IMG/VR virus record: IMGVR_UViG_3300031993_000006 | Span: 96,001 to 160,000 of that record | Source: a virus | Taxonomy: Duplodnaviria; Caudoviricetes | Reading direction: 5' to 3' (one strand) | Length of the DNA: 64,000 bases | Part shown: positions 48,960-52,349 of the stretch, one piece after another | Position numbering within the stretch: the stretch's first letter is position 1 | Layout of the letters: every line of letters starts with the position of its first letter | The notes under the pieces: model-generated | The model's database searches: none | What the model was told of the DNA's origin: nothing | The model's input: the letters and a program-made list of their open reading frames with translations, nothing else | Position numbers and translations under genes: made by a program

Positions 48960-49376
48960 TTAGTTTGCCGGTGTAGTGGCCGGTATGGCGACCGGCTTGG
49001 CAAAGGAGTTTCGTGTCCAGGTAACACGGAGCTCTTCATAGGCGAATCCCTTCCTGGCTTCCTTGTTTTTGAGGATGATTTGTCCGCGGAACAGGATGCT
49101 GGAACGGGTTTCCGGCGGCAAGCTCATCAGCTCATTGAATGCGCCCAAAAGCTGATTCCATTTCTTGTACATCGGATTGTGCTTAAAGCGACTCATTCTT
49201 TGCACGATGCGGTAGAAGTTTCCCTTGTAGTTCGGGTGGTCGTCGTCCTGCGGGACGACAGATGGCGTTTCTTCGTCGAGGTTGGCGGTTTCTTCAGCGA
49301 TAGCCTGCACTTCGGCGGCGTCCTTTTCCTGGGCGGCCGTTACTTCTTGCATATTTTCTTCGGAAGTCATGTTCAT
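48960..49376 (-). CDS. hypothetical protein
   Basis: ATG 49376 lies downstream of the promoter motif at ~49410-49419. Confidence 0.65.
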   Translation of the reverse strand: MNMTSEENMQEVTAAQEKDAAEVQAIAEETANLDEETPSVVPQDDDHPNYKGNFYRIVQRMSRFKHNPMYKKWNQLLGAFNELMSLPPETRSSILFRGQIILKNKEARKGFAYEELRVTWTRNSFAKPVAIPATTPAN

Positions 49377-49655
49377 AGAAAGTTTCCTGTGGTTAGTTTT
49401 GCTATAACACAAATATAGCAAAATTACCATCGGTCGTAGCAGGGATGTTTCTCCACGGGAGTGATTGCAAGCTTGTCGAGTTCATTGAGGTTGTTGTACC
49501 AGTTTTCCTGATACTGTTTCATCGGGTTACTAACAGCTAACCTAAAATCTACCTAAGCTTACTCAAATATAGCAAAATCTACGAGAAATATGTGTATTTT
49601 TAGGTTGCAAATCGGCATAAAATTTTGTATATTGTTATAAACTTGATGTATAGAG

Positions 49656-49755
49656 GTTCGATGAATTAGTGGCTTTCTTCATTGAACGACAATAAGAGAC
49701 CATTTATGATGGCTCGTTTGATGCTGAAAGCCACAAAAAGTATCGAACGAGCCAT
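49656..49755 (+). ncRNA. structured RNA leader: two hairpins with complementary loops
   Basis: 10-bp and 17-bp stems; loops GTGGCTTTC (49669-49677) and GAAAGCCAC (49726-49734) are exact complements. Confidence 0.65.
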
Positions 49756-49766
49756 TTCTGTATTGT

Positions 49767-51500
49767 ATGAGCAAGCACTGTTGGACATTGAAGGATAGGT
49801 ACGAATCGCAGTTCTCCGCTGCGTTCTATCCTATCATGCTGTCCGACACTAAGCGAGCCGAAATTATCCATAGGGCAGAAGAAATCCGTGCGGTAAGGAA
49901 CGACATATCGGAAGTGTTCTTCTCGGATATGCTCGGCTTCCAGGACATGAGCAAGTTCGAGGCGTTCAACTTCTTCAATCCTACGTTCAACACCCGGCTT
50001 TCCAGCCATTACTTGAAGAAGGCTATCGAAGAAGTATGGAAAGCATACCAGCTAAGGTTTGGTGCAATCCGCAAGAAGATTGAGTTTGTAAAAGTAGAAA
50101 AGCTTGTGCCGTCATTCTATAAGATAAATTCTCATGGACATAAGAAGGGCGAGCTGAAATCTATCGAAGTACATACCAAGAAGACCGAACTAACGAAAGT
50201 ATTGACCTGGCTTGCACGATATGGAAAGGACGAATCCGTTTACTGGCTAGAATCCGTTATCCCTACTGTTGTAGAAACCAAGCAGAAATTCTACCGAACC
50301 ATTCTTGAAAAGATACACAAGTTCGGTTTCGACCGCCTTATGCGATTGGCCTTATCCCGTAGAGAAGCTGTATATGCGAAATATATCGAACGTGGAAAGA
50401 TTACCTTTGATTCGCTCACTTTCAGCGGGCGAAGCCGTATCACGCGTCCTATAGTGGATGCCCGTAGGAACGAGACCGGAAAGTTCGACTATTTCATCGA
50501 GATTTCCTGGGACTGGTCCAGCCAGGCATACCATGGACCTAGTGAGCATACACTGTGCATCCCGTTCAAGTACAACAAGGCATACCACAAGTCACTGCAA
50601 AGATACTGCAATGGTGGAGACACTTCCTATACAATCGTAATCCGAGGAAAGGACATCCACGTAGTCCTGGCAAGGGACGGCTACCGCTACAAGAGCGATG
50701 CAGAAATTACCGAGGAGAATACGGTCGGCATAGATGTCAATTCCAAGCATAACATGTTCGCATTGAGCACCGGAGAGTTCATTCCCCATGACGAGAAGCT
50801 GATTGCCGAACTTGAAGACGAGCTGTTTAAAATCGACAACAAGCAGAAGAACTACGATGCCCGGTTCAAGGAATACGAGGAACATGATGCCTTCAAGATT
50901 TCCAGTAAGGACAAGAAGCGGATAGAAGCCATTACCTTGAAGCTGAACGAATCCAACAAGCGTAGAATTGCCACCATGTGCAAGGACCTTGCCGACCGTG
51001 GATTCAAGCACATTGTAATGGAAAATCTTACAGGATTTCAAGGAAGCAGACTAAATGCCGATGACAAGAAAGGTTTCAACTTAGGACGGTTGCATCTACG
51101 AATTGGACTGTCATCGTTAAAGGATGACGTAGAACATATATCGGCACATTATGGACTGGGCTTCTCGCTCATACAGCCAGAGTATACCTCGAAGATGTGT
51201 CCGGTATGCGGCGGTATAGACGACCGGAACCGCCAGACTCAAGAAGAATTTAAGTGTGTGGACTGCTTGCATGCCGACAATGCAGACTGCAATAGTTCAA
51301 TAAACATCAAGTTCCGCCTTACCTCGACCGTGTTAAGAGGGTACCTACTTGAAGTAGGGGATAGCGGATATAGGTGCTTCCAGCCAAAGAGCTTGTTCGG
51401 GTGGCAAGTAAGGAAGTGCCTAGAAAAGTGCCGTTGCGATGGTCTGTTCAAACGGTCCATAGGAAATCACGAAAAACTTACGATGAGTAAGTTTGAGTAG
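49767..51500 (+). CDS. tnpB: large (577 aa) TnpB/Cas12f-like RuvC nuclease
   Basis: VGIDVN, IVMENL, YTSKMCPVCG..FKCVDC..NADCNSSINI; RuvC D/E/D intact. Confidence 0.88.
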   Translation: MSKHCWTLKDRYESQFSAAFYPIMLSDTKRAEIIHRAEEIRAVRNDISEVFFSDMLGFQDMSKFEAFNFFNPTFNTRLSSHYLKKAIEEVWKAYQLRFGAIRKKIEFVKVEKLVPSFYKINSHGHKKGELKSIEVHTKKTELTKVLTWLARYGKDESVYWLESVIPTVVETKQKFYRTILEKIHKFGFDRLMRLALSRREAVYAKYIERGKITFDSLTFSGRSRITRPIVDARRNETGKFDYFIEISWDWSSQAYHGPSEHTLCIPFKYNKAYHKSLQRYCNGGDTSYTIVIRGKDIHVVLARDGYRYKSDAEITEENTVGIDVNSKHNMFALSTGEFIPHDEKLIAELEDELFKIDNKQKNYDARFKEYEEHDAFKISSKDKKRIEAITLKLNESNKRRIATMCKDLADRGFKHIVMENLTGFQGSRLNADDKKGFNLGRLHLRIGLSSLKDDVEHISAHYGLGFSLIQPEYTSKMCPVCGGIDDRNRQTQEEFKCVDCLHADNADCNSSINIKFRLTSTVLRGYLLEVGDSGYRCFQPKSLFGWQVRKCLEKCRCDGLFKRSIGNHEKLTMSKFE

Positions 51501-51683
51501 ATTTCAGTCAACGGTTGAACTTGAGGTCGTGCATACGCTGGAAGCTAGCGTGTAGGTCGCCCGCTAGGTCGCCGGCCGGTTTCACCGCCTGGAACCACAT
51601 CAGGGTCTGGTTCTTGGGACGGGCTTCCTGTTCTACGGTAGCGTCATTGTAGGTAGGGTCGATGTCGAGCTTGCGGGAGTTTA

Positions 51684-52349
51684 TCAAAGTTCCAACAATC
51701 TGTCGAGTTCTTCCTTGGTCGCTCGCTTGGCTCTGGTGATTGCCGGACGGGTAAGCATCTCTTGTCCCGGTACGGCAAGCGGGTCGGGGTCCTTCTTTTT
51801 GGCTAGATGGGGGAAGTTGGCATCTTTGAATATGTCAATCGGGGTTTTCGGGTCGTCCACATCGGAAAGGTCAGGTTCATCCGGTTGTTCTTGCTTTTCC
51901 TCTTCAGCATGGCGTTTAGCTTCGGCAGCCGCCTGCTCCTGTTCTTTTTTCCAACGGTCGTGGTGCTCACAGTTGACTGATGAGTTCGAAATGTGGTCCA
52001 TTTCGGATGTGTCGTCGAGGTTGCTGAAATTCCATTTGAACCTGATGTCGGCAGCCGTCAGCTTATATTTATGGATTAGGCCGGGAGAAACCTGCCGACG
52101 AAGGAATTCGGTCAGTCGAGGGGATATCGGGCGTGGGTTTTTGGGTGGCTGGATTTTCAGGACTGCGAGATAGAATTCGTCGCATATGTCCTCGTCACCG
52201 CCTAGTTCTCGCAATATTTCTCGGGCGATGCCCGTTATTTGCATTTCGCCCATTGCGGTTGCCGGGATACGATGTTTTTTCGCGTTGATTTTCAGAAGGG
52301 TGCTTATGAACGCCTGATTGTTGATTATGAGTCTATCGATATCTGCCAT
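51684..52349 (-). CDS. hypothetical protein
   Basis: GCTATATTTG 5 nt before ATG. Confidence 0.7.
   Translation of the reverse strand: MADIDRLIINNQAFISTLLKINAKKHRIPATAMGEMQITGIAREILRELGGDEDICDEFYLAVLKIQPPKNPRPISPRLTEFLRRQVSPGLIHKYKLTAADIRFKWNFSNLDDTSEMDHISNSSVNCEHHDRWKKEQEQAAAEAKRHAEEEKQEQPDEPDLSDVDDPKTPIDIFKDANFPHLAKKKDPDPLAVPGQEMLTRPAITRAKRATKEELDRLLEL

Follow-up and report, generated by a model that had tools for sequence, protein, structure and literature searches.

The described systems closest to the element reported here are insertion sequences of the IS607 family and the TnpB nucleases that they carry. In the IS607 IStron of Clostridium botulinum, GG is a strict requirement of the serine transposase TnpA_S, and the preferred target is TGGG, which is also the transposon-adjacent motif (TAM) (PMC10690162). 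Cleavage of the donor joint by TnpB restores the element, and excision is scarless (PMC10690162). ISFba1-type IS607 TnpBs are RNA-guided endonucleases of ~390 amino acids that use a G-rich 5' TAM (AGGAG or GAGGG), a 20-nt guide and an RNA derived from the Rfam family RAGATH-18 (PMC11061315). It is therefore already established that TnpB cuts the empty donor site in IS605 and IS607 elements and that IS607 TnpBs have G-rich TAMs. TnpB genes in huge phages have likewise been reported in the literature, and homing of such transposons into co-infecting phages has been discussed in a review (PMC13565253). Here we describe a TnpB element that interrupts a small gene of a large phage. It lies in a stretch of 64,000 nucleotides (the window), which comprises bases 96001-160000 of a 259,974-bp IMG/VR virus record (IMGVR_UViG_3300031993_000006) that is ~91% complete; positions below are those of the window unless stated otherwise. 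We think it quite likely that this is an IS607-derived TnpB element with a guide to the intact allele of its host gene, that it gained an outward promoter after insertion and that a working split protein is not to be expected. Its less ordinary sides are a large, phage-adapted TnpB with a leader RNA, the capture of a promoter motif by one copy and the reuse of the same codon by distinct sublineages.

The element and its left junction were placed from alignments of element ends and from empty sites, as follows.

49527 to 51514, plus strand: the element, 1,988 bp with one GG counted with the right end; a non-autonomous derivative of the IS607 family
49524 to 49526, plus strand: GGG at the left junction, made up of a target-derived G and the GG core; the inferred TAM for TnpB

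For the boundary alignment we used the regions around 17 viral tnpB loci, which gave ~12 left ends and 15 right ends. The flanks diverge directly left of GGGTTAYCAAC and directly right of ...GTCAACGGT. GGG is common to all the real left junctions that we collected, and farther 5' nothing is conserved. A GG(T) core is constant at both ends of every copy, with no variable duplication. Since the empty site holds three G, the target reads G-GG-T and the element [GG]TTAC...CAAC[GG]. Like IS607 insertions in general, this one is scarless, with no target-site duplication and no terminal inverted repeats. A 4-bp GGTT target duplication was rejected because three of the four shared bases belong to the constant GGT core and the fourth matches by coincidence. 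A crossover at GG only, leaving two G, was also rejected, since empty sites have three.

Two related loci, L008 and L009, tie the element to its family. In both, a gene encoding a MerR-type helix-turn-helix (HTH) and a resolvase catalytic domain lies between the left terminus, which is the same as in the window copy, and a tnpB of 82% identity. Its product, TnpA, matches the Pfam Resolvase family (5e-23) and the MerR HTH and scores 176 bits against the NCBIfam model of the IS607 transposase (NF033518, cut-off 110). There is no tnpA inside the window copy, while L008 and L009 are autonomous and have the IS607 transposase. Thus, the window copy is a non-autonomous derivative. A first-pass annotation of the window had called the insertion IS607-like, and the serine TnpA of L008 and L009, the shared left terminus and the scarless G-GG-T insertion bear this out. 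The data support the conclusion that the element at window positions 49527-51514 descends from an IS607-family insertion sequence resident in large phages and has no transposase of its own.

Two other classes of element were considered and rejected. The ends of the element carry direct repeats of AAATCTAC, which are likely transposase sites, and no terminal hairpins. An IS200/IS605 type was rejected on account of these ends and of the autonomous relatives, which carry a serine recombinase and not Y1. An IStron was rejected because positions 49300-51800 hold no Rfam intron match, the 5' structure is ~100 nt long and the element is antisense to its host gene. That antisense orientation is not fixed in the family: some other copies are in sense with the open reading frames (ORFs) that they interrupt, and others are antisense. 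Most other copies likewise interrupt small ORFs. The first gene inside the autonomous copies (L008:182-373 and L009:1192-1386) is a conserved ORF of 63-64 amino acids with no family match, which lies upstream of tnpA and overlaps it, and L009 has an extra ORF of 121 amino acids between tnpA and tnpB.

We then turn to the host gene, which the element leaves in two pieces, and to the flank predicted to serve as the guide.

49424 to 49522, minus strand: C-terminal remnant of the host gene, 32 codons; its start is the ATG at 49522, a native internal Met of the host protein
51508 to 51687, minus strand: N-terminal remnant, 59 codons, with a TTG start and a TGA stop from the right end of the element
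51515 to 51534, plus strand: predicted 20-nt guide, the flank of the right end

The element is inserted between the codons for N and P (KFN|P). When positions 49527-51514 are removed and 49526 is joined to 51515, one minus-strand frame of 91 codons results, with KFNPMKQ spanning the joint. Natural empty sites show the same joint. An 8.5-kb viral contig (L002), found through the neighbouring 221-amino-acid protein, carries the gene uninterrupted with exactly the predicted junction; it is 86% identical to the excised window, with no base gained or lost at the joint. A degenerate search with the pattern NPMKQYQE gave two further uninterrupted alleles (L026 and L027) with the same junction. In all three alleles, GGG is followed by a 20/20 match to window positions 51515-51534. 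We also searched exhaustively with the 172-amino-acid L002 protein and found that intact homologues are single genes of 147-175 amino acids. A word-based search with the 59-residue N-terminal remnant gave no match, the intact homologues being outside the length window of that search.

The first-pass annotation had noted that excision restores an in-frame ORF of 91 amino acids and had pointed to relatives as the place to look for an intact protein of that length. The restored frame is there, both in the joined window and in the natural empty sites. The relatives do have a single uninterrupted gene, but its length is 147-175 and not 91 amino acids, the first 81 codons having been deleted from the window copy. 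Homologues in two separate genes or with different junctions were not seen; all three alleles are intact, with the junction where it was predicted. The guide, taken as the 20 nt after the right end, stands as it was quoted. The TAM had been predicted to end in TCGGG. These bases are present at the left flank, but only GGG is conserved among insertion sites.

Two further features of the element bear on its predicted activity.

49767 to 51500, plus strand: tnpB-like gene, 577 amino acids
51313 to 51514, plus strand: omegaRNA-like scaffold; it overlaps tnpB at the 3' end of the gene and runs to the right-end GG

The sole Pfam match of the TnpB is to PF07282 (Cas12f1-like TNB domain; 2.5e-12). Across 21 sequences compared, the RuvC residues D323, E419 and D507 and the zinc-ribbon residues C478, C481, C497 and C500 are invariant, which gives the protein the split RuvC and zinc ribbon of TnpB nucleases. 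Matches to Cas12f and TnpB sequences in the PDB are confined to its C-terminal part. The scaffold fills the last ~200 nt of the element, and the flanks diverge right after it. Its consensus fold, from 13 element copies, has 62 pairs, 12 of them with compensatory changes. Searching positions 49300-51800 against Rfam with E up to 1 gave no match, and so no RAGATH-18, intron or known omegaRNA family. A structured RNA at the 3' end of tnpB that ends at the element boundary, with the flank as predicted guide, is what would be expected of an omegaRNA, and we regard the scaffold as a candidate for one.

The first-pass annotation had also proposed that TnpB targets the intact allele. At the level of sequence this proposal is well supported, by the three alleles with GGG and a 20/20 target, by the conserved RuvC and zinc-ribbon residues and by the covarying scaffold that runs to the right end. 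In the mechanism that we propose after the published one for IS605 and IS607 TnpBs, a transcript of the right end and its flank would guide TnpB to cut the uninterrupted allele. Such an allele could arise by excision or come in with a co-infecting relative. Recombinational repair would then copy the element back, which would amount to retention in the first case and homing in the second. The locus offers a clean natural case of the logic by which the flank of a TnpB element is its guide: one occupied allele and three empty alleles with the predicted TAM and a perfect 20-nt target. Co-infection among phages would turn retention into true homing, and RNA-guided homing from phage to phage is testable with sequences that are now known.

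Upstream of tnpB, the element carries a second structured RNA and a second promoter-like motif.

49656 to 49756, plus strand: structured 5' leader of tnpB, two hairpins with a 6-bp kissing helix between their loops
49636 to 49643, plus strand: TATAAACT, a second class of phage promoter-like motif, 123 nt upstream of tnpB

The hairpins of the leader have 10 bp and 16 bp, and their loops, GTGGCT and AGCCAC, pair with each other. In the consensus fold, again of 13 copies, there are 32 pairs, with 98.6% of cells paired (34-45% in slid controls) and compensatory changes in 11 pairs; four of the six loop-loop pairs covary. The leader has no Rfam match. It could act in translation control or be a second RNA partner of TnpB. 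A frame of 38 codons (49682-49798, plus strand), which begins at an upstream ATG in the leader hairpin, runs across the tnpB start. In relatives, a spacer 1 nt shorter puts this ATG in frame with tnpB, which accounts for the forms of 596-598 amino acids in the protein search. The motif TATAAACT has 31 copies in the genome versus 8 expected, mostly before ORFs, many of which are large. Nearly all aligned left ends keep it, even those where the remaining left end is lost (L010 and L014). It resembles T4-type late promoters.

We compared the locus with the known systems. Like the C. botulinum IS607 IStron (PMC10690162), it belongs with a serine transposase that has an N-terminal HTH (here in the autonomous relatives) and uses a GG core. 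Its G-rich target is also the TAM (TGGG there, inferred to be GGG here), it has neither inverted repeats nor a duplication, and its empty site is scarless. In both systems the scaffold overlaps the 3' end of tnpB and the flank is the guide. Unlike the IStron, the window copy lacks tnpA and a group I intron. Its TnpB, at 577 amino acids with an unmatched N terminus of 280, also fails the NCBIfam IS607_TnpB model, and the element lives in large phages, where its tnpB is preceded by a phage promoter-like motif and a kissing-loop leader. With the ISFba1-type TnpBs (PMC11061315) it shares the link to IS607 and, as predicted here, RNA-guided cleavage with a G-rich 5' TAM and a 20-nt guide. However, those proteins are ~390 amino acids long with a RAGATH-18-derived RNA, whereas the TnpB of the window is half as large again and its RNA has no Rfam match. 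The locus also resembles phage homing endonuclease genes and what has been called "transposon non-restorative homing" (PMC13565253), in which the target of a phage nuclease is the nuclease-free allele of a related, co-infecting phage, and occupied and empty alleles coexist among related phages here as in those systems. The difference is that recognition in the homing proposed here would be by guide RNA and TAM, and not by protein. This defines a lineage of large (577 amino acids) TnpBs tied to phage promoter motifs and to a covarying kissing-loop leader.

The element was found at the same place in more than one phage. In three phages (those of the window, L021 and L030), it occupies the homologous KFN|P codon of the same gene family, in the same orientation. 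The flanks of the L021 copy (1-2617) are 94-97% identical to those of the window, but the elements share 74% identity in DNA and 76% in TnpB protein. Replacement of the element interior in situ was rejected as an explanation for this, since the fall in identity, from 94% to 73%, coincides with the left boundary. In L030 (4335-4601), the target homologue is 33% identical and ends ...KFN, R, stop, with the same right end after the AAC codon; its intact relative reads KFNPL.

One explanation is that the insertion is an old polymorphism, a single ancient KFN|P insertion passed among phages by TnpB-triggered recombination. The shared position and orientation in three phages, the flanks of the window and L021 that are so much more alike than the elements within them, and the coexistence of empty and occupied alleles all fit this explanation. 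However, the L030 phage has flanks that have diverged too far to allow homologous repair: between that phage and the phage of the window, the gp13-like neighbour is 66% identical, which makes it more diverged than the element family itself. Moreover, each of the same-site elements is closer to an element at another site (window with L003, 92%; L021 with L013, 89%) than the two are to each other (76%). There is also the alternative of a landing preference. TYGA follows the core in 4 of the 14 insertion sites compared (P ~0.001-0.007), and the genome contains 2,133 GGGT sites versus 17 GGGTTGAA. We therefore regard the old polymorphism as possible but lean against it. Reuse of the codon reflects either a preferred landing sequence in the conserved KFNP codons (on the opposite strand, GGG, then TTGAA) or an old polymorphism maintained by homing.

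A bolder reading joins these observations to the promoter described below. It holds that a phage-adapted IS607/TnpB family repeatedly reaches the same KFN|P codons of a single accessory gene family across phages too diverged for recombination and that copies capture the resident promoter motif, restoring outward transcription. If it is true, the element would be an RNA-guided homing element of large phages with a site preference and host-specific regulatory adaptation. We offer it as speculation, a shade more doubtful to us than the old polymorphism.

Outward promoters in insertion sequences are classical, as in the Bacteroides elements found upstream of resistance genes. The window copy has a candidate for such a promoter in its left end.

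49564 to 49577, minus strand: perfect 14-nt copy of the phage promoter motif TTTTGCTATATTTG, facing outward, inside the left end

The first-pass annotation had noted an outward GCTATATTTG at 49564-49573 (minus strand) ahead of an ATG at 49522 that opens a 32-codon frame, and we found both in place. The 10-mer GCTATATTTG has 29 copies in the 260-kb genome versus ~0.5 expected, and its conserved core extends over ~14 nt to TTTTGCTATATTTG. For most of the other 28, an ORF on the same strand starts within ~50 nt downstream, and for several of them within 1-7 nt. The motif in the left end conforms to this pattern of a phage promoter, with a 14/14 match to the consensus 41 nt upstream of the ATG at 49522. 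It contains the Bacteroidota -7 box TAnnTTTG (PMC7366714). Since it is identical to 28 sites upstream of genes, it is probably used by the same polymerase. The outward motif would then probably fire and transcribe the 32-codon remnant and the next gene. The next gene has a motif copy of its own at 49419. Thus, the sole new product of outward transcription would be a 32-residue peptide.

We observed that this motif is particular to the window copy. At the homologous position, the best match in each of ten other distinct left ends still has 2-4 mismatches. Among them, the L021 element, at the same site and in the same orientation in a sister phage, has a left end without the perfect motif. A scan of viral contigs for another left end with the promoter variant found none. 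Therefore, the motif is a derived state of this one copy and no trait of the family. It occupies the place of the middle one of three AAATCTAC repeats. The likeness to insertion sequences with outward promoters lies in a promoter near the end of the element that reads into the flank and has a Bacteroidota-type -7 box; unlike theirs, this one is the derived state of one copy, which reproduces the resident phage's own motif.

The motif might instead be a functionless by-product, made by short-patch conversion, with one of the other 28 copies as donor, or by drift in an AT-rich, hypervariable spacer. The AAATCTAC repeats of the spacer already resemble it, the homologous position in relatives matches it at 10-12 of 14 positions (12 in L018), and the left end is at its most variable here. 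Nor is there an obvious beneficiary, the remnant being 32 codons long and the next gene having its own promoter. However, four or five specific substitutions would be required relative to each close relative, and when the first 130 nt of the left end were shuffled 20,000 times, the perfect 14-mer never arose. Its identity to the sites upstream of genes also makes binding by the same polymerase likely, whether useful or not. Thus, we judge an origin as a mere by-product to be unlikely, and the outward motif, as read from the DNA, to be real, derived and probably an active promoter.

We next consider whether the element spares its host gene, as the first-pass annotation had suggested. In that proposal the N-terminal half ends cleanly, the promoter in the left end and the ATG at 49522 allow renewed expression of the C-terminal half, and the two peptides still provide the function of the gene. 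Damage limitation of this general kind has been demonstrated for IStrons, the IS605 or IS607 elements with a group I intron, which like this element are mobile and interrupt genes. Here there is no intron and the insertion is antisense, so that splicing cannot rejoin the gene, and the only candidate for mitigation is the promoter. The immediate stop of the N-terminal half was correctly seen: the frame at 51508-51687 (minus strand) ends AAC CGT TGA, its stop codon lying within the right end. Each remnant is an open frame. Frames that read into the element stop early, with TAA in all three frames within 11 codons at the left end (49527-49560, plus strand) and, at the right end (51470-51516, minus strand), TGA in two frames within 4 codons and in the third after 15. 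The promoter also speaks for the proposal, being perfect, specific to this copy and at a distance from the in-frame ATG that is within the range of the other sites. In a model of the target protein of moderate confidence (predicted local distance difference test [pLDDT] score of 70), the split falls at a helix break; the C-terminal remnant comprises two short helices, and the N-terminal remnant is a low-confidence, mostly disordered segment plus one helix.

Other observations argue against such a rescue, first among them a deletion.

51672 to 51687, minus strand: deletion junction; in a pairwise alignment, 243 nt present in L002, L026 and L027 are gone, with the native start and the first 81 codons

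The lost codons hold N24 and D78, two of the seven invariant residues of the target protein family, and what is left of the N-terminal half is the disordered segment and its helix. This loss of the conserved N-terminal helical part is independent of the insertion, and thus the target gene is decaying otherwise too. The ATG at 49522 is native to the host protein, since its Met also follows directly after KFNP in all three intact homologues. The stop of the N-terminal half comes from the conserved right-end terminus, which makes it a by-product of that terminus. Neither the same-site L021 element nor nine other left ends have the perfect motif, and the downstream gene has its own promoter. We found no fold match for the target protein in BFVD and no useful Atlas neighbour; it is the product of a small accessory gene without an assigned function. 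Taken as a trait of the element, damage mitigation was therefore not supported, and the idea comes down to one derived promoter copy beside an otherwise decaying gene. Continued work of both gene halves is weakly supported and functional rescue of the split gene is unlikely, so that we consider the proposal as a whole very improbable. The outward motif looks like a post-insertion change and not like a family device for sparing the host gene.

Several observations weigh against the account that we prefer, namely, an IS607-derived TnpB element with a guide to the intact allele, a promoter gained after insertion and no working split protein. The action of the nuclease and its RNA and the mobility of the element are predictions from sequence. 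Curated TnpB models were missed (NF040570 guided_TnpB, 85.7 bits versus a cut-off of 100; NF038280 IS607_TnpB, 18.9 versus 350), the N-terminal 280 residues of TnpB match nothing in family and PDB sequence searches, and the AlphaFold model of the protein (pLDDT 43) is too poor for use. The genome contains no cognate TnpA, its sole serine recombinase being 39% identical and belonging to another element, and the window copy may be immobile. That a perfect 14-nt promoter arose in a hypervariable spacer is suggestive of selection and would agree with outward transcription being of some use. Finally, the TTG start of the N-terminal remnant overlaps the TGA stop of the upstream gene for the 221-amino-acid protein, and this overlap could allow coupled translation of the remnant.

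The element region gave no megablast match, near-identical or other, among GenBank phages, and the stretch is present as a single copy in the 260-kb genome. The nuclease has more than 900 relatives; the best 120 are 76-92% identical, and many of them lie on contigs of 100-450 kb. The same genome holds eight TnpB-like genes of several families (L049-L056). At genome positions 196633-197040, a gene for a serine recombinase adjoins a TnpB with a frame of 453 amino acids, and together the two probably make up an autonomous element of IS607 type from another lineage.

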